A stretch of DNA of 24,000 bases from Lysobacterales bacterium (GCA_050173995.1 JBFXKH010000025.1:5349-29348), one strand, 5' to 3'. Positions 12,170 to 24,000 are shown, counted from the stretch's first letter. Made by a program: numbers and translations. Notes: generated by a model not told the origin, from the letters alone.

Positions 12170-12311
12170 TCGCGGCCGGCGCGGCGGCAACGGACACATT
12201 GCCAGTAGCCAAGCCAGATCGCCCACCCCGGCAGCGCCGAGCACCAGCTCGGCAACGCCGTCCACCGCCATCGCAACAGCGAAGCGCACCACCGCACCAC
12301 CGCATCACCAC

Positions 12312-12485
12312 CGACCCGACCATCACAGGCAATCGCAGCTCGATCGCCCGGACGCTTCCGCCGACCCAGCCACGGAAAGCGCGGTTCCGCAATCCATCGC
12401 TCCCCCCACACCCGGCACCCGACCCACAGCAACCCTCGAAAATCATGGCTGTCCCGGCTTGCGCCTGATCGAGCAGGCGCGGCGG
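12312..12485 (-). pseudogene. possible degenerate N-terminal relic of an integron integrase (very tentative)
   Basis: The minus-frame translation gives PPRLLDQ (12485-12465). It then gives LRNRAFRGWVGGSVRAIELRLPVMVGS (12392-12312). The second stretch aligns without internal gaps to the IntI1 segment [28 protein letters not shown] as I recall it, about 10 identities. Position and orientation, immediately left of the first cassette, are right for intI. Arg/Ala/Gly-rich chance matches are likely at this GC, and the spacing between the two pieces is wrong. Confidence 0.2.
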
Positions 12486-12698
12486 GTTCGCGCTCGCGGC
12501 ATGCTGACCATGGCGCGCATTGTTACCACCGATGCCGAGATCGGAATGCGTGTCAGTGAAACAACGCCAGCACACTTGCCAGTCGAATTCGAGGCGACTA
12601 ATCTGCCTGTGAAGGTACTGCGGTACGATGGTTTCATGCGCCTGCTTCCCGCCGAAAGACATTGCAAGGATAGGCTGCAAGGATCGGCGGCAACATCG

Positions 12699-12722
12699 GC
12701 GTAACACCATGATTCGTTTAGG
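12699..12722 (+). other. candidate attI-like simple site / first cassette junction
   Basis: The sequence is GCGTAAC-N10-GTTTAGG. The TTAGGA at 12717-12722 nearly matches the TTAGGC expected from the R'' box (GCCTAAC) of the first attC. The match is imperfect and not verifiable by eye. Confidence 0.2.
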
Positions 12723-12986
12723 AGTTTTCCTACAAGCAACGATCCTGGCGCTGTGATAGGCTGCGGGAACACATGGCGATTCGTCGCCGACTGGGTGGTT
12801 GGCAGCACAAACAACTAAACTCGCACTTGCCGAAACGCGGAAATCGCGTCTCTCAGAGGTGGCCTCCTGAGACTGATGATGGCGGGCTATACACATGCGG
12901 TATTTGGCCCCGCGGGTTTCCTGCTAGGGTTTGTAGTTACCGAGGTGATCGCTCTTCTATCTGAAATCACAAAGGAGGATATGCAC

Positions 12987-13187
12987 ATGGTCCAAAAGGC
13001 AGCCGTATCAAGTGGGAAGCAGCTATGGTCATGCGTCAAAAGTTCTACCAAGCGCCTCATCGCGTTTTGGGAGGCTCACCTTCCTTACAGGCAAAGCCTG
13101 CTGATGAGCTTGTGCAACTCAAGCGAAAAGGCCCTGAGATTGCTGCCTAACAATTCGTTCAAGGCGGACGCCTCCGGCGCCGCTTAA
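12987..13187 (+). CDS. hypothetical small protein (cassette 1)
   Basis: AAAGGAGG at 12971-12978 sits 8 nt before ATG 12987. The 66-aa product is MVQKAAVSSGKQLW.... The C-terminal codons (LPNNSFKADASGAA) are encoded by the attC itself. A longer in-frame start at 12876 would add a hydrophobic N-terminus but lacks an SD. Confidence 0.45.
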   Translation: MVQKAAVSSGKQLWSCVKSSTKRLIAFWEAHLPYRQSLLMSLCNSSEKALRLLPNNSFKADASGAA

Positions 13188-13201
13188 CTCAAACGTTAGG
13201 C
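13145..13201 (+). repeat. attC site 1 (57 bp)
   Basis: GCCTAAC aattcgttcaaggcggacgcctccggcgccgcttaactcaaac GTTAGGC. R'' (RYYYAAC) and R' (GTTRRRY) flank an imperfect internal palindrome. Closely resembles the aadA-type 59-base element as I recall it. Confidence 0.85.
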
Positions 13202-13216
13202 CACTATGGAGGCCAT

Positions 13217-13582
13217 GTGATCACCATAAAGACAGGAAGATTCGACGTCCTAGAAACCAAGACGCTACTTATTCCTGGCCTGGGCGAAACCAAGATTACG
13301 ATCAATCATGGCATTGAAGAAATTTCGTTCATCTTTGATTTTCGTATCGATGATAAATCGGAGCAGCAGCTCAACTATGAGTTGGTAGATGATCAACAGC
13401 TCCGCATAGTACTTATAAATTGGGGTGGCCCTTTCCCCACAACTCCTATTGAGCCGGTTCCAGTAGGAACAATTGGCAACAGAGAACTCTTTATTCTTTT
13501 TTCAGCTGCTAAGGCGGGAGACAAGGCGGAGATTCGCCAGCTAACCTTTACGGCCCTCCTGGGGGAGGTCGCAAATGGCTAA
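13217..13582 (+). CDS. hypothetical 121-aa soluble protein (cassette 2, gene 1)
   Basis: GTG at 13217 lies 4 nt after GGAGG (13208-13212). The sequence alternates hydrophobic and polar residues and looks beta-rich (ITIKTGRFDVLETKTLLIPGLGETKITINHG...LRIVLINWGG...). I recognise no family. Lower GC than the surrounding core DNA. Confidence 0.65.
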   Translation: MITIKTGRFDVLETKTLLIPGLGETKITINHGIEEISFIFDFRIDDKSEQQLNYELVDDQQLRIVLINWGGPFPTTPIEPVPVGTIGNRELFILFSAAKAGDKAEIRQLTFTALLGEVANG

Positions 13583-13841
13583 GTTGGTCGTACGTACGAG
13601 CGTTTCGGCTCCTACTGAAATCAACATCCCGTTGATCCGTGCGGATCATGCACACACCTCCCATGTATTCAGAACCTGCTTCGAAGTCTCTCTCTCTATC
13701 TTTTCAACTCTCCTAGGCTACGTGTTGGGCCTCTCAAGTACCATTCGCATCCATTGGGTGTTTCTCGGCGTATTTGCGCTTGCCACACTCGCATTTCTCG
13801 CTCTCTCTTACAGAGCTAGCAGCACTGCAAAAGTGGCCTAA
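13575..13841 (+). CDS. hypothetical 88-aa membrane protein, two predicted TM helices (cassette 2, gene 2)
   Basis: The ATG at 13575 overlaps the upstream stop (ATGGCTAA, 8-nt overlap). Hydrophobic stretches are FEVSLSIFSTLLGYVLGL and IHWVFLGVFALATLAFLAL. The stop TAA lies inside the R'' box of attC 2. Confidence 0.6.
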   Translation: MAKLVVRTSVSAPTEINIPLIRADHAHTSHVFRTCFEVSLSIFSTLLGYVLGLSSTIRIHWVFLGVFALATLAFLALSYRASSTAKVA

Positions 13842-13892
13842 CTATTCATTCAATCCGACGCCTTTGGCGCGGCTTAGCTCAAGACGTTAGCT
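13836..13892 (+). repeat. attC site 2 (57 bp)
   Basis: GCCTAAC tattcattcaatccgacgcctttggcgcggcttagctcaagac GTTAGCT. Its R'' GCCTAAC is complementary to the TTAGGC that starts this cassette at 13196. Confidence 0.85.
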
Positions 13893-13896
13893 GTCA

Positions 13897-14745
13897 ATGA
13901 GAGGTTCTCAGCACATGGATAAACAGCAGGCACTAGATCAGCTGGACAAGTTCAAACATCGTCTGGTCGCTGATGTGGCAGGTGCGTACGCGCAGCGTGG
14001 CTCTGACTTTGGGCGAGAGCGCTTTGCTGCTTGGCGACGCCAGATCGATAAGTTCCTAGACGAGAATCTTCCCGGCGCACGCGCAATGCTGGACAAAAAA
14101 TTGGACCACGGCGTCTTCTTTCGTGGCAGATCAGAGGGCGACTATGATGTATTCATGCGCGAGGATGGAGGGCCATCTTTGGCATTAATCGACTCTCTTT
14201 GTTTAGACATCAAGAATGACGAGTACGATTTTTCACGAGAAGTACCCCATCAGAACGCTGCTGAAACAAAAAAAGCAAGGAAATCTGCCCCAGAGAATTC
14301 AACTCGAGTATTCATTGTCCACGGTCATGATGAAACTTTAAAGACAAAGGCGGCGCGGTTTGTTGAAAAGTTAGGGTTAAAAGCGGTAATTCTTCATGAG
14401 CAGGCCAATCAGGGCCATACAATTATTGAGAAAATTGAGGCGCACACAGATGTAGGGTTCGCAATCGTTCTATACACACCAGATGATGCTGGTAGCACCC
14501 AGGCAGAAGCCAAAGCTGGAACACTGAAGCCAAGAGCAAGGCAAAACGTCGTTTTTGAACACGGCTACCTCATCGCCAAACTTTCACGGGCAAGAGTAGT
14601 TCCTCTGGTGGCAGCAAAATTAGAACTTCCAAGCGACATTAGCGGTGTCGTTTACGTGGACGACACGAACTGGCAAATAGATATTGCAAAGGAAATGAAA
14701 GCCGCTGGCTACAGTATTGACTTCAATAAGCTAGTTGACAGCTAA
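13897..14745 (+). CDS. TIR-like domain protein (CAP12/PycTIR-type, COG4271-like) with uncharacterised N-terminal helical domain
   Basis: The C-terminal ~140 aa read RVFIVHGHDETLKTKAARFVEKLGL..VILHEQANQGHTIIEKIE...GFAIVLYTPDD...ARQNVVFEHGYLIAKLSRARVVPLV...ELPSDISGVVYV. This matches the bacterial TIR-like family, including the conserved Glu (E221, codon 14557-14559). The N-terminal ~135 aa have no motif I recognise. An alternative start is ATG 13915. The stop TAA lies in the R'' of attC 3. Confidence 0.82.
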   Translation: MRGSQHMDKQQALDQLDKFKHRLVADVAGAYAQRGSDFGRERFAAWRRQIDKFLDENLPGARAMLDKKLDHGVFFRGRSEGDYDVFMREDGGPSLALIDSLCLDIKNDEYDFSREVPHQNAAETKKARKSAPENSTRVFIVHGHDETLKTKAARFVEKLGLKAVILHEQANQGHTIIEKIEAHTDVGFAIVLYTPDDAGSTQAEAKAGTLKPRARQNVVFEHGYLIAKLSRARVVPLVAAKLELPSDISGVVYVDDTNWQIDIAKEMKAAGYSIDFNKLVDS

Positions 14746-14799
14746 CAAGTCATTCAAGCCGACGCCGCTTCGCGGCGCGGCTTAATTCAGGCGTTAGGC
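14740..14799 (+). repeat. attC site 3 (60 bp)
   Basis: AGCTAAC aagtcattcaagccgacgccgcttcgcggcgcggcttaattcaggc GTTAGGC. Its R'' AGCTAAC is complementary to the TTAGCT that starts this cassette at 13887. Confidence 0.88.
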
Positions 14800-14815
14800 A
14801 ACAAGGTTAAATCTC

Positions 14816-15040
14816 ATGATCGACTTCTCAGCCGCAACGGCCCAGGAACTTGGCAAGCACAAGCAACACTTCCCATCTGGGAGTGACATAACAAAGCTCG
14901 CAAAGCTCGGGACACCCTCTTTTCAGCAGGCGCCCGAACCGACACGGTTGGAAGCCCAGCCCCCCCCACTCTTCCTATGCCCACAGGATGGGACGAATGG
15001 CCAGGTCAACGCAGTCCGCTGGTCGGCACGATCTGGTTGA
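14816..15040 (+). CDS. hypothetical 74-aa ORF (cassette 4, possibly truncated)
   Basis: The ORF follows attC 3 by 16 nt with a weak AAGG upstream. I recognise no family. It has no canonical attC of its own and runs straight into direct repeat A, so it may be a remnant. Confidence 0.25.
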   Translation: MIDFSAATAQELGKHKQHFPSGSDITKLAKLGTPSFQQAPEPTRLEAQPPPLFLCPQDGTNGQVNAVRWSARSG

Positions 15041-15221
15041 TGCGCTGATGGTCTGAACCGTTCGCCGGTTTGTCCTTTCCGTCATCTGACGCCACCGCGC
15101 CAGGCAAAAAGTGGACCGCCGACTGCCGTCCCTCCAACTGCCGTCCTCCGTCGATCCAAGGGCCGCGCTATGATTTTGGCTGCACGGCCGCTGCCTTGGG
15201 GATTCGTAGTTGTAGCGGCTT

Positions 15222-15282
15222 GGTTCGACCTTTCGCTCAAGCCGACGCCGCTTCACGGCACGGCCCACTTCAGGCGTTCGCC
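15222..15282 (+). repeat. degenerate attC-like element A
   Basis: ggttcgacctttcgctCAAGCCGACGCCGCTTCACGGCACGGCCCACTTCAGGC GTTCGCC. The central palindrome and a GTT-type R' box are conserved. The R'' position reads GGTTCGA, not RYYYAAC. Confidence 0.4.
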
Positions 15283-15288
15283 ACCACC

Positions 15289-15436
15289 ATGCAGGTCTCC
15301 GGCATCTGTCATTTCAATCTGCGAGCGCCGCGCGAGCTGCTCGATTCTCTGCGCGACTTCTACTGAGAGGTCGTTGGCCTTTCGGTCGGCGTTCGCCCGG
15401 CGTTCTCCAGCTTCGGCTACTCGGCAGCAAGGACGT
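15289..15436 (+). pseudogene. truncated duplicate of the VOC/glyoxalase gene
   Basis: MQVSGICHFNLRAPRELLDSLRDFY is followed by a stop at 15364-15366. Nucleotide homology to 16479-16636 continues past the stop with an ~11-nt deletion, then is lost at ~15437. Confidence 0.75.
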
Positions 15437-15519
15437 CGTCGTCGATGGCGAGTGTCGTGCGCATGATCGGCTCCTGATGGCGCACACCGTACTTCAGGCA
15501 TCGCGTCAACAAGCCAGGA

Positions 15520-15732
15520 TTATGCAGCGATGTCGATGTACTCAACTACACTGGCAGGCGCCGGAATCGGCATTCCGTCTTCACGCAACCCGGCGATGTG
15601 AAAGGCGATGGCCTCCCGGATATCGCGCTCTACGTCAGCCACCGTCGCGCCGGTTGCTATGCAGCCCGGAAGGTCGGGGACATAGGCGGAATAATTGCCC
15701 GGGGCTTGCTCAATCACTACGGCAAAACGCAT
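15520..15732 (-). CDS. hicB: HicB-family antitoxin (short, UPF0150-type)
   Basis: MRFAVVIEQAPGNYSAYVPDLPGCIATGATVADVERDIREAIAFHIAGLREDGMPIP is the canonical HicB N-terminal domain. It starts 5 nt downstream of the hicA stop codon. Confidence 0.85.
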   Translation of the reverse strand: MRFAVVIEQAPGNYSAYVPDLPGCIATGATVADVERDIREAIAFHIAGLREDGMPIPAPASVVEYIDIAA

Positions 15733-15737
15733 CGGGT

Positions 15738-15938
15738 CTACCTCTTCAGGCCAGCCTGCTTAAGGATGCTGTCGATTGTACCAGCGCCAAGGTCATCGCT
15801 GGGTTTTCCGGCAACCGTGACCCGGCCAGGCTTCGCAGGATGTTTGAACTGCCTATGGCTACCGCGAGTTGCCACCAAGACCCAGCCATCGTCCTTGAGG
15901 CGACGCAGAACTCCGCTGACTTTGGCGGTTGGCGGCAC
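15738..15938 (-). CDS. hicA: HicA-family mRNA interferase toxin
   Basis: VLRRLKDDGWVLVATRGSHRQFKHPAKPGRVTVAGKPSDDLGAGTIDSILKQAGL carries the HicA signature, including GSH-x-F-x-HP. The GTG start at 15938 lies 7 nt after GGGAGG. Confidence 0.85.
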   Translation of the reverse strand: MPPTAKVSGVLRRLKDDGWVLVATRGSHRQFKHPAKPGRVTVAGKPSDDLGAGTIDSILKQAGLKR

Positions 15939-16033
15939 CCAGGAACCTCCCTATCGAAAACCTATCGTCCGGCATCGCCTGCGGGCGAAAGCCGGTAAAG
16001 GCCGCAGTCGCTGGTCGGAGGCACGCAGTTGTT

Positions 16034-16225
16034 GGACGAAGCCGTTACGCGGAGGAAGCCTACTGCGGCACCTGTTCGGTCAGGATGATACATCGCCGCC
16101 ACGGTCGGTGGATCGCCAAAATCAGCGGCTGTGGTGATCGGTGGAACCCAGACGCGCTGGCGCTTGCTGCGCCAAGATACTGGCCCATGGAGTGCGTCGC
16201 TGCGCGCCGCTTGGTCTGAACCGAT
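16034..16225 (+). repeat. ~190-bp dispersed element, copy 1
   Basis: Aligns by eye at about 70-75% with 18957-19146 (ggacgaagccg.tacgcgga..aagcc..actgcggc.cctgt..gg..aggatgatac...). In both places it abuts the 5' side of a minus-strand toxin module. Confidence 0.55.
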
Positions 16226-16636
16226 CGCCGGCTCGACCCGATTCCACCGTTCCGGCCAAAACGTGGTTGTCCAACTGCCGTCTGTTGTCCGACTGCCGTC
16301 CTCCGACTGCCGACTGCCGTCCCGCCAACTGCCGTCCTCCATCGATCCAAGGGCCGCGGTATGATTTTGGCTGCACGGCCGCTGACTTGGGGTTTGGTAT
16401 TTTTCGCGGCTGGTTCGATCTTCCGTCCAAGCCGACACCGCTTCACGGCACGGTCCACTTCAGGCGTTTGCCACCACCATGCAGGTCTCCGGCATCTGTC
16501 ATTTCAATCTGCGCGCCCCGCGCGAGCTGCTCGATGCTTTGCGCGATTTCTACTGCGACATTGTTGGCCTTTCGGTTGGCGCTCGCCCGGCGTTCTCCAG
16601 CTTCGGCTACTGGCTCTACGCCGGCAGCAAGGATGT
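16201..16636 (+). repeat. direct repeat copy B (~436 bp)
   Basis: Partner of 15041-15436. It contains a longer heptamer run (16270-16345), attC-like element B, and the 5' end of the intact VOC gene. Confidence 0.8.
16412..16472 (+). repeat. degenerate attC-like element B
   Basis: ggttcgatcttccgtcCAAGCCGACACCGCTTCACGGCACGGTCCACTTCAGGC GTTTGCC, which ends 6 nt before the VOC ATG. Confidence 0.4.
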
Positions 16637-16889
16637 CCTTCATCTCACCGAGGCGCGGCCAGGCGAGCAGCGCTGCACGGGCCGTGCCGCAACTTTCGAT
16701 CATGTTGCGTTCGCCTGCACCGATGCTGCCGCCTACCGGGTCAGGCTGCAGGCAGCCGGCATCGCCTTCACCACCGATACCGTTCCAGGCACGGGCCAAC
16801 TGCAGATGTTCTTCACCGATCCCGCCGGCAATGGCGTCGAAATCAATTTCGCCGGGTCGGCTGACGCCTCCGTCAGAGCAACCGTGTAG
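16479..16889 (+). CDS. VOC family protein (glyoxalase/bleomycin-resistance/dioxygenase fold)
   Basis: 136 aa. ICHFNLRAPRELLDALRDFYCDIVGL...FDHVAFAC.D......RL...GI.F........G..QMFFTDPAGNGVEINF is the typical paired beta-alpha-beta-beta-beta VOC pattern. Confidence 0.85.
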   Translation: MQVSGICHFNLRAPRELLDALRDFYCDIVGLSVGARPAFSSFGYWLYAGSKDVLHLTEARPGEQRCTGRAATFDHVAFACTDAAAYRVRLQAAGIAFTTDTVPGTGQLQMFFTDPAGNGVEINFAGSADASVRATV

Positions 16890-17292
16890 GCGGGCGAGGC
16901 GCGTCGGGACGGGTCGGCTGCAACGGATGGCTGGCCGCCTGCCGCGCCAGCACGAAGCCCTCGCCGGATTCGGAATTCACTGGCAACAGCGCACGAGCCG
17001 CGAGCACTTGCGCGACAAGAATGTTTGGAATGGCGGCGCGGCCTTGCCGCCACGGCTTGGCAAGCGTGGGCGGGAGCCAGGTAACCTTTGGCGCAAGAGC
17101 GAGCTGATCGAGTTCAAGTGCAAGCGGTTGCTCGTCGGCGGAGAAGAACGCCGAAGCAACCTGCGCACTGTCGTCGGCAGCGTTGACGTGGACACAGTCA
17201 TCACGACGGTCAGCGGCGCAGCGCGGTAGCACCCCGGTTGCGAGTGCAACCTGCCAATCGGAAAGCGATGTAATGCGAAAAATCGAAGACAT
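16873..17292 (-). CDS. DUF952-like protein
   Basis: MSSIFRITSLSDWQVALATG....CVHVNAADDSAQVASAFF....PLALELD resembles the DUF952 pattern (I-x-H/R-I...W...G...FIH-S...Q......F). The 3' end overlaps the convergent VOC gene by 17 nt, and the C-terminal extension may be spurious. Confidence 0.5.
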   Translation of the reverse strand: MSSIFRITSLSDWQVALATGVLPRCAADRRDDCVHVNAADDSAQVASAFFSADEQPLALELDQLALAPKVTWLPPTLAKPWRQGRAAIPNILVAQVLAARALLPVNSESGEGFVLARQAASHPLQPTRPDAPRPPTRLL

Positions 17293-17304
17293 GGGATGCG
17301 CGGC

Positions 17305-18144
17305 CTAATGTCTAATCGCAGCGGTGGGTTTGCCAGAGCATCGTACTGCAAGCGCGCCGGTCTTCTGGACCTGCCCTGGTGGCCCACACCGGCCGTCGTC
17401 GAGGAATTGCGAGATCAGCGTGCCGATCCTGGACTGTAGCTCGGTGGGGCCATGGTCGTTCATGTCGTTATGACGGGCGCCGGCGATTGCCGTGATACAC
17501 GTGCCGGCATTCGCTTCCTGCGCTGTGGGTAGAACACCAGGGTCCGCCTCGAAGTCGCTGCCACGAATCGACAGGACTTTGATCGACCGGCTCCGGGGAA
17601 GCGGGTATCTGCGATGGTCGAGCGTGACCAGCGCCGTCGCAAGCGCAGGAGACCGATGTACGAAAAGGGCCGAAATGTCTCCCCCGTTCGAGTGGCCGAC
17701 CAGCGTTAACCGAGACCAGTCAAAGCCAGTGTGTGTACGGGACAGGGCGTCACGCACGAAGTGAAGATTCTCGACGCCACGATGCCACGCCGGCATGCGA
17801 CTGGCGAATAGGTCGCCGGACCTGCTTAGCGGGGCGTCGGTAGGCAGGTCGTGTTGAATGGCCACAACCAGGTAGCCAGATCGTGCCAGTGTGGCGGCGA
17901 CAAACGAGTAGTCAGTGTGGCGCAGGCCATAGCCAGGGCTTAGCAAAGCGACCGGGCATGGCCTGTCACGGATGCAGTCGTGCGGACGCGCCGGGAAATA
18001 AACTGCGATCGGAATGTGCCGGTCACGGCTTGCATCCCATAGCTCGGCCGACTCGGTAAGTCTTGAACCGCCCGCAGCTGTGGTTGCGCAGGCCACCAAA
18101 GCGACCAGCACCAGCAGTGTCGCAAATCTCATCAGTGCTTTCAT
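17305..18144 (-). CDS. alpha/beta hydrolase lipoprotein
   Basis: The signal peptide has a lipobox (LLVLVALVAC). The nucleophile elbow is LVGHSNGG, and a late ARHNDM supplies a probable catalytic His. 279 aa. Confidence 0.8.
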   Translation of the reverse strand: MKALMRFATLLVLVALVACATTAAGGSRLTESAELWDASRDRHIPIAVYFPARPHDCIRDRPCPVALLSPGYGLRHTDYSFVAATLARSGYLVVAIQHDLPTDAPLSRSGDLFASRMPAWHRGVENLHFVRDALSRTHTGFDWSRLTLVGHSNGGDISALFVHRSPALATALVTLDHRRYPLPRSRSIKVLSIRGSDFEADPGVLPTAQEANAGTCITAIAGARHNDMNDHGPTELQSRIGTLISQFLDDGRCGPPGQVQKTGALAVRCSGKPTAAIRH

Positions 18145-18171
18145 GGGGGCTGAGAGTTGAAGTTTTGTCGC

Positions 18172-18516
18172 TCAGGGCGACAACGCCAGCACCAGCCGCA
18201 GGCCTTCATCGACTTGTGACATGGCCTTGCCGGAGAGCGACCTGACTTTGGACGCGAGCAAAGCGCGATCCAAGGTGATGAGTTGCGAGACGTTGATTAC
18301 CGAGGCTCTCGGCAACCCCGATTCGGACCTGGCCAAACGCACATTGCCCGGTGCCGCTGCCAAGGCCAGGTTGGACGTGACGACAGCCACGATGACGGTC
18401 CCTATGCGACTTTCATTGAATGCCTGCGATTGCACAACCAGCACCGGACGTCGGAAGCCTGGATCGGAGCCGGTAGCTGCAGGCAGCGACGCCCACCACA
18501 ACTCACCACGCTTCAT
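18172..18516 (-). CDS. mazF: MazF/PemK-family toxin endoribonuclease
   Basis: MKRGELWWASLPAATGSDPGFRRPVLVVQSQAFNESRIGTVIVAVVTSNLALAAAPGNVRL....GLPRASVINVSQLITLDRALL is the canonical PemK/MazF pattern. ATG at 18516; the track's TTG at 18522 is less likely. Confidence 0.88.
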   Translation of the reverse strand: MKRGELWWASLPAATGSDPGFRRPVLVVQSQAFNESRIGTVIVAVVTSNLALAAAPGNVRLARSESGLPRASVINVSQLITLDRALLASKVRSLSGKAMSQVDEGLRLVLALSP

Positions 18517-18531
18517 CTGCAACCGAACTCG

Positions 18532-18870
18532 TCAGGCTGCATCTGCGGGCGTGCGCAAGAACCCCACTGCAATGGCAAAGACCACGGTCAACAGCAGTAC
18601 CTCGGCCAACCCGGCGCCAGCCACCAGCAGAAGCGTTCTCGCTTCCTCCTCCGCGACTATCGATAGTTTCGTCAGCTCCTCAATCCCAACCAAGATAAGA
18701 AACAGCAGAACGTATAGCAACACGGGGATGATCGAATAAAAGAAGAACAACCAAGCTGCCTTGAATCTGCGCATCACGCCGCTGCGCACTTGTCCGATCT
18801 GTCGCGCGAAGACGCCGACCGGCACCAGGATGATCGACCAGAATAGCAGCGACAGCAAATGCTCTCTCAT
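18532..18870 (-). CDS. hypothetical 112-aa membrane protein with three predicted TM helices, in the antitoxin position upstream of mazF
   Basis: ATG at 18870 lies 4 nt after AGGAGG. The hydrophobic segments are LLSLLFWSIILVPVGVFA, AAWLFFFYSIIPVLLYVLLFLILVGI and TLLLVAGAGLAEVLLLTVVFAIAVGFL. Its stop lies 15 nt before the mazF ATG. Local GC is lower than the flanks. Confidence 0.6.
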   Translation of the reverse strand: MREHLLSLLFWSIILVPVGVFARQIGQVRSGVMRRFKAAWLFFFYSIIPVLLYVLLFLILVGIEELTKLSIVAEEEARTLLLVAGAGLAEVLLLTVVFAIAVGFLRTPADAA

Positions 18871-18905
18871 CCGGCCTCCTGGGTACACCAAGTAGTGGCT
18901 TCGCA

Positions 18906-18958
18906 GCCCGACGCCTGAGCCAAGCCGCGAAGCGGCTGCGGCTTGAATGAACCGCTGG
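18906..18958 (-). repeat. attC-like element in reverse orientation
   Basis: The minus strand reads ccagcggTTCATTCAAGCCGCAGCCGCTTCGCGGCTTGGCTCAGGC GTCGGGC, which parallels attC 3 (..GTCATTCAAGCCGACGCCGCTTCGCGGCGCGGCTTAATTCAGGC GTTAGGC). The boxes are degenerate. Confidence 0.4.
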
Positions 18959-19146
18959 ACGAAGCCGCTACGCGGACAAAGCCCCACTGCGGCGCCTGTG
19001 CGGCGAGGATGATACCTCTCCCCCACGGCCGATGGCTGGCCAAGGCAACAACGGATGGGGCGATCGGCGGAACCCGGCTGCGCTGGCGTTGGCTGTGCCC
19101 AGGTGCGGACCTTTGGAGTGCGGCGCTACGCGCCGCTTTGGATGCT
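18957..19146 (+). repeat. ~190-bp dispersed element, copy 2
   Basis: Partner of 16034-16225. Its 3' part forms the left arm of the 19111-19204 palindrome. Confidence 0.55.
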
Positions 19147-19204
19147 CTACTGGCAGCGACTGACGCAAAGCATCCAAAGCGGCGCCGAGCGCCGCACGCC
19201 AAAA
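19111..19204. repeat. long imperfect palindrome (~36-bp arms, 22-nt loop)
   Basis: A perfect 17-bp core pairs GCGCCGCTTTGGATGCT (19130-19146) with AGCATCCAAAGCGGCGC (19169-19185). The arms extend through gtgcggcgct/agcgccgcac (19118-19127 / 19188-19197) and ctttgg/ccaaa, with small bulges. Confidence 0.8.
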
Positions 19205-19367
19205 TACCCGCCGGTGCCGATGGGCTCGAACACATCGGCACCGCGCTCGATGTGGGCCATTGCGGCGGTCTGGTCGCTGCATGTGCCATGCCCGACCAGG
19301 CCAGCTGTGGGCCTGTGTGAGTGCCCGCAGTGCCCCAATCAACGACCACACCACCAACCTACGGTCC

Positions 19368-19389
19368 GGATCGTGGCCGCGCACGATCC
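19368..19389 (-). terminator. candidate stem-loop downstream of the XRE gene
   Basis: GGATCGTG-gccgcg-CACGATCC lies 12 nt past the stop codon. There is no U-tract, so function is uncertain. Confidence 0.25.
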
Positions 19390-19400
19390 AAGCCTATTCG

Positions 19401-19655
19401 TCAGGCGGCTGAATCCAGTTGCCAGCCGGGAAAAGCAAGAACCGCCGGGTGGCAATGCAGCGCAGCGCCCAACACCTTGGCACGCTCTACGCCCAAATTG
19501 ACCCGACCCGTTTCGATGCTGGAGATGGTTGTTTGTGGGATGCCGCAAAGCGCGGACAGTTCATTCTGGCTGAGCCCCTGCAGTTCGCGAATGATGCGAA
19601 CGGACTCGCCAGGCGTAACGTCGACGCGCTTTTTGGCTGGAATTGGTTTGCTCAT
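19401..19655 (-). CDS. XRE-family helix-turn-helix protein (HigA-like antitoxin/regulator)
   Basis: ATG at 19655 lies 7 nt after GGAGG. IRELQGLSQNELSALCGIPQTTISSIETGRVNLGVERAKVLGAAL is a canonical XRE HTH. 84 aa. Confidence 0.8.
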   Translation of the reverse strand: MSKPIPAKKRVDVTPGESVRIIRELQGLSQNELSALCGIPQTTISSIETGRVNLGVERAKVLGAALHCHPAVLAFPGWQLDSAA

Positions 19656-19656
19656 T

Positions 19657-19842
19657 TCAGCGCCTCCGATAGTCATGAGCTGTGACACGCGCTACTTGAA
19701 CGACCATGACGCCAGCCTTGATCCGGAGGCTTGCGATGCTGCGATCAATGCGCTTGATTTGTCGAAGCGCTGATGAGCGCTGGACCCCCACATAGCGCGT
19801 CGCGTCGGTTTCCGGAAGACGCGCACCACTCTCGTCACCCAT
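19657..19842 (-). CDS. hypothetical 61-aa ORF translationally abutting the XRE gene (possible small toxin or decayed RelE/HigB-like gene)
   Basis: Its stop TGA ends 1 nt before the XRE ATG. The segment SSALRQIKRIDRSIASLRI loosely recalls the N-terminal A-x-K-x-L-K-K-L-D helix of RelE/ParE toxins. The ORF is too short for a full RelE fold. Confidence 0.3.
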   Translation of the reverse strand: MGDESGARLPETDATRYVGVQRSSALRQIKRIDRSIASLRIKAGVMVVQVARVTAHDYRRR

Positions 19843-19867
19843 GCCGACCTCGCGTTGTCTTTAGCTG

Positions 19868-20476
19868 TTACCGTTGTGCATACCGAGTGGCCAACGCGCA
19901 TAAATGTTTGCGTGTGCGCGCAAGACTCGGGGAACGTTGCGCCGCCCGAGTCGGGGACCACTGGGTACGAACCATCTCGCAAAGTCTGGCGTTATATCCC
20001 AGCCCCTGCGAGGCAATGGCGTTTCGTCGCACCACTAAATCTTCGCGTACTGCACGATGCGCCTTTTCCGCGATTCCCAACAATGTTCGTTTCGGGTCGC
20101 TCAGGCCATCGGGATTCTCGGGCAGGGAGCGGATACGCGTTCCCATCAGGGTGCGCAACCCCTCGTGATCGGCAATGATCCATGACTCGATTTCCCGCAC
20201 TGCCACCCTGAACACCAGTCCTGCTGGCTGCGCAATATCTTGCAGCCAATTGGCAATCAGTGTCGGCGCACATTTGGATTGGTCGAGATCGGTGATAAGG
20301 AACACGGGTTCATGCGCTGCCATCCGACAGAAGTTTCCGATGCGGCTCCGCAGGTACCCCGATCCACCTCGTCGAAGGCATTGGTGCGCGTGCAACCCCA
20401 CTTCAGCGGCGAGACAAAGCCCCACCTGCTCGCTGAGCTCATCTTCGGTTGCGAGCGTGATCCCACTCACTGCCAC
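19868..20476 (-). CDS. DUF4276-like protein (Toprim-like fold, putative nuclease partner of the ATPase)
   Basis: About 200 aa. The motifs ITLATEDELSEQV (acidic N-terminal strand), PVFLITDLDQSKCAPTL (DxD-like), FRVAVREIESWIIADHEGL and NPDGLSDPKRTLL match my recollection of DUF4276 proteins. The GTG start at 20476 or 20470 overlaps the ATPase stop by 10 or 4 nt. Confidence 0.65.
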   Translation of the reverse strand: MAVSGITLATEDELSEQVGLCLAAEVGLHAHQCLRRGGSGYLRSRIGNFCRMAAHEPVFLITDLDQSKCAPTLIANWLQDIAQPAGLVFRVAVREIESWIIADHEGLRTLMGTRIRSLPENPDGLSDPKRTLLGIAEKAHRAVREDLVVRRNAIASQGLGYNARLCEMVRTQWSPTRAAQRSPSLARTRKHLCALATRYAQR

Positions 20477-21630
20477 AGCCCCAGCTGCGCTGCCGCGCTG
20501 GGACGGGCCTTTGGAAGCACTACTTCGGCAACAGACAGCCCGCTCAGCAACGCGCTGCTTTCCCTTTCGTCAAGGACGCGCACAACAGTTCCCTCGGGCG
20601 CCGCCACCAGCAACAGGACGCCGCGTCCATCTATGCCCGGATTGCTCAGCAATGCCTCACTGTGCGTACTGATAAAAACCTGCCTCGAACGGCGTTTTTT
20701 ATCGCGCTGAATTCGTTGCAGCAGAAGTGGGATTTGGCGAACGATTGCATCATTCAGCGACAACTCGGGCTCTTCGAGGAGCAACAGAGAGTCCCCTTCG
20801 AGGAGCACCCACAACAATCCAAGGAGGCGCAAAGTTCCGTCCGAGAAGTGTTCCTCGCGCTGCCAGCCTGCGTTGGGCCGATGGTGTGCGTAACGGGCCT
20901 CCAAGTGTGGCCTTCCGCTAACTTTATCCGGTGTGAATCGAAGTTCTACGAATTGCGGGACGGCCAGTTTCAAGGCTTGCCCGATCTTCTTCAAGCGCGA
21001 CTCGCGCGCGCGATCCTGGGTCTTGGCAACACGCTCCAAGAAGCCTTGGCCGAACGGATCATCCTCGAGTAATTTTCCACCGAGCTGATCGGCGTACTTG
21101 AGTAACTGCGGGACTAGATGAAGATATGTTGCCTCGCCAAAAAATTCGGCAATTGCTCGAAACTTCGCGTTTGCCTGGATCTGCTCCAACGCGGTCTGTG
21201 TCAGCCGCATTGGATCCTTCTTGTCGGTCTTCGGGTTAGGCCGATCCAGCAGGAGCTTGCCACCGCGAAAGACTTGCTCAACGGAGATGAGAGTGCGCTG
21301 CGCGCCCTTTCCCTCAGGCTTGAATCCCAACACATATCGCCACGTCTCGGCCCCATCCTCAGCGCTGTCGGCAAGATCCACCTCGATCCGAACTTCGGGA
21401 TCTTTGCGCGCATGCAGGCAACGTAGTTTTTGGATTCCACCTCGATCATGGATCGCTTTTTGCAATCCACCACCATGCGGCTTGCAAACATCGCGCAGGA
21501 ATCGGAATACATCCAAAAAATTGGACTTGCCCGACGCATTTGCCCCAAGCAGGTACGTGCGCTCATGCAGCGGCACGTCCACGGCGCGAAAGTTGCGCCA
21601 GTTCTTGAGCTTGAGATGGGTCACTATCAT
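20467..21630 (-). CDS. ABC-type AAA ATPase (AAA_15/AAA_21-like, OLD/AriA/GajA/PtuA-type head)
   Basis: MIVTHLKLKNWRNFRAVDVPLHERTYLLGANASGKSNFLDVFRFL contains Walker A. FSDGTLRLLGLLWVL is signature-like, DSLLLLEEPELSLN is Walker B, and VFISTHSEALL is the H-loop. GGAG lies 10 nt upstream of the ATG at 21630. Confidence 0.85.
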   Translation of the reverse strand: MIVTHLKLKNWRNFRAVDVPLHERTYLLGANASGKSNFLDVFRFLRDVCKPHGGGLQKAIHDRGGIQKLRCLHARKDPEVRIEVDLADSAEDGAETWRYVLGFKPEGKGAQRTLISVEQVFRGGKLLLDRPNPKTDKKDPMRLTQTALEQIQANAKFRAIAEFFGEATYLHLVPQLLKYADQLGGKLLEDDPFGQGFLERVAKTQDRARESRLKKIGQALKLAVPQFVELRFTPDKVSGRPHLEARYAHHRPNAGWQREEHFSDGTLRLLGLLWVLLEGDSLLLLEEPELSLNDAIVRQIPLLLQRIQRDKKRRSRQVFISTHSEALLSNPGIDGRGVLLLVAAPEGTVVRVLDERESSALLSGLSVAEVVLPKARPSAAAQLGLWQ

Positions 21631-21772
21631 GATAAACGTCTCCGAGCGAGTGCTGCTCGCTCGCTATGGGCTGCTTTAGGTGTCCAAAATTACCGCCAAC
21701 CTGCAGACATTCATCCAGCACCGTAGCGCAACCGGAAGAACGGTTGCAATGCGACCCTGGCGGGCTGAACCA

Positions 21773-21794
21773 ATCCATCCATATGGAGTTGGAT
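21773..21794. promoter_or_regulatory. palindromic candidate operator upstream of the ATPase operon
   Basis: ATCCA TCCATATGGA gt TGGAT. The central 10-bp TCCATATGGA (21778-21787) is a perfect palindrome and lies ~145-165 nt upstream of the ATPase ATG in an otherwise GC-rich spacer. Confidence 0.2.
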
Positions 21795-21958
21795 CTGGGG
21801 ATTGTAGGCCCGATCGCCTTGCGTGCGCGAGCCTGGCGGCGGCACAGGCCAGCGCAGATGCTGGGGTTCGCTGCGCTTACCGCCAGCCTACGTTTATCCG
21901 GACGGTCGCAGGCCGAACCGGGCGGTGGCGAGGTGTGACAGCACGTTATCGGTGGCGG

Positions 21959-22012
21959 GTTCGGGATTGACCGGCTCCGCTGTCGAGAGCCACTGCGATT
22001 CGTCCGGGCTAC
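21959..22012 (-). repeat. REP-like element of the same family as 1332-1524
   Basis: The minus strand reads GTAGCCCGGACGAATCGCAGTGGCTCTCGACAGCGGAGCCGGTCAATCCCGAAC. Compare GTAGCCTGGATGGAGCGCAGCGGCTCTCAACAGCGCAGCTGGTCAATCC at 1332. Confidence 0.6.
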
Positions 22013-22047
22013 TTTTTGCACTACTTCCTAAGCTGATTTGCACGCCG

Positions 22048-24000
<1,953 letters not shown>

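Follow-up and report, generated by a model that had tools for sequence, protein, structure and literature searches.

The 24,000-nucleotide (nt) stretch of DNA from a Lysobacterales bacterium analysed here (GCA_050173995.1, JBFXKH010000025.1:5349-29348), which as a whole we call the window and which is identical to contig JBFWRM010000002.1 of assembly GCA_050248935.1, carries four minus-strand open reading frames (ORFs) at 20467-21630, 19868-20476, 19657-19842 and 19401-19688, numbered here as genes 1 to 4 and listed with lengths of 387, 202, 61 and 95 amino acids (aa) respectively. These ORFs and their tight packing, with overlaps or gaps of no more than 25 nt (25 nt between genes 2 and 3), are as described in the original prediction, which took the four to be a single new candidate defence system consisting of an ATPase, a Toprim-like DUF4276 protein, a 61-aa protein and an XRE regulator. 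We find instead that the locus is very probably a composite, in which a self-contained two-gene module of the HEC-01 type (genes 1 and 2) lies beside the wreck of an unrelated toxin-antitoxin (TA) pair (genes 3 and 4). What appeared to be a new four-gene defence system is thus corrected to a known candidate type and genomic debris, and a false lead is avoided.

The ATPase and DUF4276 gene pair

Gene 1 (20467-21630, minus strand) encodes a 387-aa ABC-type ATPase, HEC-01A, which matches the PADLOC HEC-01A profile PDLC04180 with E=2.2e-150 (499 bits; residues 1-384 of 387 on profile positions 1-379 of 382) and the Pfam families AAA_21 (E=1.6e-31) and AAA_15. Every other PADLOC defence ATPase profile (AriA, mad3, AbiLi, GajA, Old and PtuA-like) matches many orders of magnitude more weakly. 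The motifs that had been quoted for this protein can all be read in the sequence, namely Walker A GANASGKSN (K35), the signature-like FSDGTLRLL at residues 262-270 (FSDGT at 262-266), Walker B LLLLEEPE (E286/E287) and the H-loop STHSE (H323), and these elements, the signature-like one taken as FSDGTLRL, are at least 95% conserved among 73 orthologues. Comparison with four relatives gives a ratio of nonsynonymous to synonymous substitution rates (dN/dS) of about 0.05, indicating purifying selection. Single-sequence AlphaFold prediction of the ATPase gave no usable model (predicted local distance difference test score, pLDDT, 34).

The product of gene 2, HEC-01B, is a DUF4276/Toprim-like putative metal-dependent nuclease, and it matches the PADLOC HEC-01B profile PDLC04194 over its full length (E=8.5e-56; residues 3-199 on profile positions 3-201 of 204). 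All of its close relatives begin with VSGITL, and the true start is therefore the GTG at 20470, giving a 200-aa protein encoded at 19868-20470 (minus strand); the ORF listed from 20476 is two residues longer. The GTG overlaps the TGA of gene 1 in the 4-nt sequence GTGA, so that the overlap claimed between the two genes is real and, of the two forms offered for it, this is the one favoured by the relatives.

The DUF4276 identity of gene 2, earlier recognised from the motifs ATEDELSE, LITDLD and REIESWIIAD (all present in the sequence), stands through its homologues and not through its own score. The direct match to Pfam DUF4276 (PF14103) reaches 19.7 bits (E=0.0011), below the gathering threshold of 30.2 bits, whereas all 35 of the homologues aligned match DUF4276 (best E=2.4e-9), with no other Pfam family matched consistently; many homologues carry a precomputed PF14103 assignment and the NCBI name 'DUF4276 family protein'. 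Because the family is consistent in all 35, we regard gene 2, by transitivity, as a divergent DUF4276 subfamily member despite its sub-threshold score. An exhaustive profile search recovers 2505 clusters at 50% identity, and the best 150 of the 2505 family representatives are all stand-alone proteins of 155-211 aa, most of them of about 200 aa. Purifying selection is also apparent for gene 2, with dN/dS of 0.13-0.17 against four relatives.

An alignment-based AlphaFold2 model of the gene 2 protein (pLDDT 92.2; predicted template modelling score, pTM, 0.90) has a core of four strand-helix units (beta-alpha x4) followed by a helical C-terminal part. Six acidic residues, E11, D12, D63, D65, E97 and D103, are invariant in 35 homologues, and in the model E11 lies just after strand 1 (residues 5-10) and D63-L64-D65 at the end of strand 3 (residues 58-63). 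As modelled, the Glu after strand 1 and the DxD after strand 3 match the Toprim signature described in PMC12065111, in which DUF4276 is assigned to the Toprim superfamily, and DUF4276/HEC-01B has been placed in Toprim with a conserved metal site (PMC12065111; 10.1101/2024.01.29.577857). The conserved acids E11, D63-x-D65, E97 and D103 would fit a putative Toprim-type metal site of this kind. A family profile search against the sequences of the PDB returned nothing relevant, and no relative with a solved structure was found by sequence. Together the Pfam and PADLOC matches and the homologue family bear out the earlier view of genes 1 and 2 as a split pair of ABC ATPase and Toprim-like (DUF4276) protein in the architectural class of OLD, PARIS and AbiL.

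The two genes form a conserved unit. A scan with the gene 2 profile, taking one genome per species, gave 80 loci, on which the neighbourhood counts are based. An ATPase orthologue (45-93% identical) lies directly upstream of the gene 2 homologue in 79 of them, in the same orientation and usually overlapping it by a few bases; the single exception is cut by a contig end. The four genes do not behave in this way, as tblastn finds neither gene 3 nor gene 4 in any of the 80 loci. The genes that follow the pair elsewhere are heterogeneous and often convergent, belonging to 83 Pfam families of which none is present in more than 6 of 67; there is no helix-turn-helix (HTH) family among the 25 commonest Pfam families listed for these downstream neighbours, and of 143 small ORFs beside the pair in other species one matches HTH_3. 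Some HEC-01 loci adjoin type III restriction, MADS, Dpd or Zorya genes.

The limits of the unit are seen at the DNA level. Homology with the closest relatives, L005 (ATPase 93% identical), L101/L102, L103/L104 and L107, is limited to window positions 19853/19917 to 21647/21674, a shared block whose outer limits are about 41 nt ahead of gene 1 and about 15 nt beyond gene 2, and the two-gene module therefore spans approximately 19853-21674. The short 5' leader that travels with it (21631-21674, minus strand; homology to L005, L101-L104 and L107 starts at 21647-21674) includes a ribosome binding site (RBS), GGAGA, at 21639-21643, and in the window copy a 7-bp hairpin formed by GAGCGAG at 21656-21662 and CTCGCTC at 21644-21650. 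Terminator-like sites in 18800-22100 are at chance level only, and an Rfam scan of the window gave no match. As relatives carry the pair at different sites, for example beside putA in L005, it is accessory and not core at this locus, as had been proposed. A scan of 80 loci of the flanking acetoacetyl-CoA synthetase for an empty site found the pair in none, the relatives being only 56-69% identical and non-syntenic, so that this result is uninformative.

Genes 3 and 4 and their toxin-antitoxin relatives

Gene 4 encodes an XRE protein that matches Pfam HTH_3 (E=1.9e-12) and has about 8000 homologues. The 120 of these that are listed are 80-93% identical to it and mostly 84 aa long, which places the start at the ATG at 19655, with 1 nt between it and the stop of gene 3, and gives an 84-aa protein at 19401-19655 (minus strand). 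It is 93% identical to P0122 and P0123, antitoxins that accompany intact toxins, and in 17 of 17 contexts inspected (L085-L100 and L108) the homologous XRE gene is preceded, again 1 nt apart, by a gene for a toxin of 91-95 aa. The matches of this toxin to the YafQ, HigB and YoeB profiles are below threshold and cover only positions 42-91 of the intact protein.

Gene 3 (19657-19842, minus strand) has no homologue but itself among 5.8 billion proteins. When the window is searched by tblastn with the intact toxins, the one region matched is 19660-19779, read in the same frame as the 61-aa ORF, and residues 21-61 of gene 3 align with toxin residues 61-95 (VMVVQVARVTAHDYRRR against VMIVQVVRVTAHDYRSR), the first 20 or so codons being unrelated junction sequence. 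The local alignment score of 87 was reached by none of 2000 shuffles, and the conserved C-terminal VxVxxVxxHDYR motif of the toxin family is kept. At the DNA level homology with the intact locus L085 is found only at window positions 19371-19721, beginning 65 nt before the toxin stop. The alignment with the toxin C-terminus and the late onset of DNA homology together identify gene 3 as the 5'-truncated remnant of a YafQ/HigB-like (RelE-superfamily) toxin gene, and gene 4 as an intact orphan antitoxin of the HigA type. The toxin gene has lost its first ~60 codons and its promoter, and what is left of its frame makes up the 61-aa ORF. The exact gene 4 sequence of the window occurs only alongside this remnant.

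The intact TA loci share a conserved promoter (TTGACAgtacatatatgatcTAG) with an embedded palindrome (TTGACAgtacatatatgatcTAGacACAAT). Kept across distant taxa in the 17 contexts, it consists of TTGACA, a 17-nt spacer containing the palindrome TACATAT(A/G)TG, and TAGACA, with the toxin ATG about 10 nt after the -10 element, which suggests that the transcript is nearly leaderless and that the operator overlaps the spacer. We did not find this promoter/operator in the window, including the region upstream of gene 1, and elsewhere there are only partial matches at chance level. Lacking the first ~60 toxin codons and the promoter/operator, the module is no longer a TA system; relative to toxin-first type II loci of the HigB/YafQ and XRE/HigA kind it keeps the toxin C-terminus, the 1-nt junction and an intact antitoxin gene, but has no full-length toxin, only residues 61-95 being recognisable. 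The antitoxin gene is now probably transcribed by read-through from the HEC-01 genes. Because the TA operator is missing from the window, upstream of gene 1 as elsewhere, there is no basis for XRE control of the HEC-01 genes; we have dropped the XRE protein as a candidate regulator of them.

Might genes 3 and 4 nonetheless function as a miniature TA system, in which the XRE protein neutralises a toxin shortened to 61 aa? The ORF is open, a plausible RBS (GAGG) lies 5 nt ahead of its ATG, the C-terminal motif of the toxin family is retained, and the ORF is called as a gene on metagenome contigs. However, about 60 of 95 toxin residues are gone, which is most of a RelE-type fold; only about the last 35 of the profile-matching positions 42-91 survive. 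The shortened form has no homologues among the proteins searched, the TA promoter and operator are gone, and we consider such a function very improbable.

We are equally sceptical of the proposal of a new DUF4276-type defence system with the 61-aa protein and the XRE regulator among its working components. In its favour, the four ORFs are co-oriented and tightly packed with the XRE gene intact, they occur together with 99.7-100% DNA identity on three or four short metagenome contigs, and the XRE protein weakly resembles the PADLOC 'control protein' (E=2.4e-8) and CapH (E=6.2e-5) profiles. These contigs are essentially the same strain, however, and so are not independent evidence for a four-gene unit. 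Set against it are the absence of genes 3 and 4 from all 80 HEC-01 loci, the loss of homology right after gene 2 in the closest relatives (ATPase 93% identical), the derivation of the 61-aa ORF from a truncated toxin without homologues of its own, and an XRE gene that comes from a TA family and whose operator is missing upstream of gene 1. On these sequence comparisons the four-gene reading is already largely refuted, and genes 3 and 4 are better seen as the decayed remainder of a separate TA module.

The pair has TA neighbours in its nearest relatives also. In the clade closest to the window (L103 4451-6907, and also L104-L106, L101, L102, L107 and L005) it follows a DUF433 antitoxin gene, which is frameshifted in L101/L102, and in L103-L106 the gene after it is one for a DUF5615 toxin with the first 31 codons missing; the L103 contig also has an intact DUF433/DUF5615 pair, at a distance of 3.5 kb. 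Counting the window and this clade, the HEC-01 module thus adjoins a decapitated toxin in two different TA families. It could be imagined that HEC-01 preferentially lodges inside TA operons, replacing or decapitating the toxin and co-opting the retained antitoxin as a transcriptional controller or anti-addiction partner, in which case TA loci would be both landing pads and regulators for promoter-less defence modules. TA-embedding is not general, however, as the 143 small flanking ORFs of other species gave matches only to DUF433, HicB, MazE and HTH_3, one each, and we regard this scenario as improbable. That the module of this clade recurs beside 5'-truncated toxin genes is a small curiosity, of interest for the way in which defence modules lacking promoters spread through variable islands.

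Relationship to known systems and the case for defence

HEC-01 ('Hma-embedded candidate 1') was defined by Payne et al. as an ABC ATPase with a TOPRIM-like protein (10.1101/2024.01.29.577857), and the window pair, two adjacent co-oriented genes for an AAA_21 ABC ATPase and a ~200-aa TOPRIM-like DUF4276 protein, differs from it in nothing architectural. The differences are in the setting: the window copy is not embedded in an Hma system and adjoins a decayed TA module. The pair therefore belongs to an already catalogued candidate type, novelty as a four-gene system is not supported, and the suggestion that a DUF4276 version had not been experimentally characterised is outdated, since HEC-01 is in PADLOC, has been published and phage-tested, and since Mad4 of MADS is also a DUF4276 protein.

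Other systems with an ATPase and a Toprim-type nuclease are more distant. PARIS is likewise a split ABC-ATPase/Toprim pair and a plausible template for the mechanism of the window pair; in it the nuclease is freed from the ATPase scaffold when a phage protein is sensed, and goes on to cleave tRNA (PMC11464382). Gene 1 matches AriA (PDLC02980, AAA_21-based, E=2.5e-29; PDLC02979, E=7.6e-14), but these matches are about 120 orders of magnitude weaker than that to HEC-01A, and gene 2 has no DUF4435 or AriB match at E<=1 in Pfam or PADLOC. The proteins also differ in size, gene 2 (200 aa) being much smaller than AriB (35 kDa) and gene 1 (387 aa) smaller than AriA (55 kDa), and in the tree of AAA15/21 ATPase systems of the same study DUF4276 is a separate partner-domain category (PMC11464382). 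MADS is an eight-gene methylation-associated system that includes an ATPase, Mad3, and the DUF4276 homologue Mad4 (10.1101/2023.03.30.534895, PMC12065111). Gene 1 weakly matches mad3 (PADLOC E=4.7e-19; NCBIfam E=3.4e-17), but its 62.7 bits fall far short of the 420-bit MAD3 equivalog cut-off (NF047739), gene 2 has no mad4 match, and nearby there are no other mad genes or methyltransferase, the neighbours being TA genes, a hydrolase and the like.

OLD and Gabija GajA share the logic of an ATPase with a Toprim-type nuclease, and gene 1 resembles them in the P-loop region (GajA chains at E~1e-5 over residues 4-48; PADLOC GajA/Old at E=1e-10 to 1e-12). In those proteins, however, the domains are fused in one polypeptide of ~580 aa, whereas here there are two genes and the similarity is confined to the P-loop region. 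AbiL and RloA-RloB also combine an ATPase with a small Toprim-related partner, and the AbiLi profile matches gene 1 (E=9.9e-17), but neither AbiLii nor RloB is matched by the sequence of gene 2. Membership of the pair in PARIS, MADS, AbiL or OLD is accordingly rejected, the partner matches being missing, the scores low, and a fusion absent.

On the scheme that we think fits best, by analogy with PARIS and OLD, an ATPase oligomer would hold or gate the small nuclease and use ATP binding and hydrolysis in sensing a phage cue; infection would release or activate the DUF4276 nuclease, which would cut nucleic acid, either tRNA as in PARIS or DNA as in OLD and Gabija, so that phage replication would stop, possibly at the cell's cost. 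That the pair has a role against phages or other mobile genetic elements we consider moderately probable; the PARIS-like sequester-and-release mechanism in particular is tentative, and we doubt it more than we favour it.

Several observations weigh against a defence function of this kind. The HEC-01 representative that Payne et al. examined in E. coli protected against none of the phages in their panel (10.1101/2024.01.29.577857), and with that null result the activity of the HEC-01 type rests on one brief report, a cold-seep study in which HEC-01 is reported as one of four candidates that protected E. coli B from one or more of the phages T4, T5 and T7 (10.1101/2024.09.26.614923). The published phage phenotypes are thus conflicting, and all come from orthologues other than that of the window. 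The Toprim fold of gene 2 is without independent confirmation from structure searches: Foldseek with the gene 2 model found nothing significant in the PDB, its top 50 including no Toprim structure, and the best match among the viral models of BFVD, an RloB-like protein (probability 0.90, template modelling score 0.45, E=0.066), is not significant. A sigma-70 promoter scan of 18800-22100 found no recognisable site, and none in the conserved block. A later survey still lists HEC-01 as a candidate.

The main rival reading is that the pair does not act against phages by itself and is an accessory or selfish module, such as an addiction-like cassette or an add-on that needs a methylation or restriction system beside it in order to work, like Mad3/Mad4 within MADS. 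In its favour are the null result of Payne et al. for HEC-01 alone and the finding that in MADS deletion of mad3 or mad4 reduces defence, while mad5 can be deleted only in combination with mad2 or mad3. Moreover, 6 of 67 downstream neighbours of HEC-01 pairs match mad3, a few match mad6/mad8 or type III restriction enzymes, and in the relatives closest to the window the pair is embedded in TA loci. Yet in most of the 80 loci the neighbours are unrelated housekeeping genes or varied, so that the pair is usually alone; the window pair has no methyltransferase or other mad gene beside it, with a gene 1 score far below the MAD3 cut-off; and the cold-seep report describes protection by a stand-alone HEC-01 clone. 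We therefore regard an accessory or selfish module as unlikely, if a reading of some weight, and prefer that of a HEC-01 candidate defence pair lying beside a TA wreck and acting by a PARIS- or OLD-like mechanism, to which as a whole we give a probability of roughly 60%. The window orthologue, being 1.8 kb long, well delimited and strongly conserved, and having residues of catalytic type, is a reasonable additional candidate for testing outside E. coli.

The surrounding island and its repeats

The locus lies within an island at approximately 12170-22047, between genes for a PQQ-repeat protein and acetoacetyl-CoA synthetase, with a guanine-plus-cytosine (GC) content of 50-62% compared to 65-70% in the core flanks. 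Its description as an accessory island containing TA modules is well founded, in that it has this lower GC content and includes HicAB, a PemK/MazF gene and another candidate defence gene. The last of these encodes a 282-aa TIR protein (Pfam CAP12-PCTIR_TIR, E=7e-37; PADLOC PDC-S35, E=6e-80), which together with the preceding DUF6864 gene (13217-13582) occupies 13217-14745 on the plus strand; the patch at 12500-15000 is only about 50% GC, and this PDC-S35 TIR gene was probably acquired separately, as a second candidate defence gene of the island. An intact TA pair at 15520-15938 (minus strand) consists of HicA (15738-15938) and a HicB-like gene (15520-15732). The PemK/MazF toxin gene is at 18172-18522 (minus strand; E=8e-26), and upstream of it is a 112-aa hydrophobic ORF (18532-18870, minus strand) with no Pfam match; no MazE-type antitoxin could be recognised there.

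Repeats of about 50 nt that form imperfect hairpins follow the ends of genes at 14754-14803, 15237-15286 and 16427-16476 (plus strand) and at 18918-18950 (inverted), the first of them ending in GTTAGGC, the canonical attC core. They may be attC sites of the integron cassettes named in the original prediction, in a cluster lacking an integrase, or else an intergenic repeat of another type; among the window ORFs scanned there was no integron integrase. A segmental duplication of about 370 nt (15049-15421 and 16212-16611; 88-91% identity) includes an attC-like repeat and the first ~130 nt of a glyoxalase-family gene (16479-16889), of which the first copy looks like a truncated paralogue. A further repeat of about 180 nt is present twice, at 16033-16212 and 18956-19138 (78-89% identity), and its second copy runs into a near-perfect 92-nt palindrome downstream of the XRE gene (19112-19203; inverted repeat I1, with 35-nt arms that are 91% complementary). 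The metagenome contigs that carry the same four ORFs (L002-L004) end within this palindrome, at 19117 or 19168, and start at the other side at 21886 or 21892, at a 32-nt repeat upstream of gene 1 (21860-21891) that matches an intergenic sequence of L005 (8940-8971) at 90.6%.

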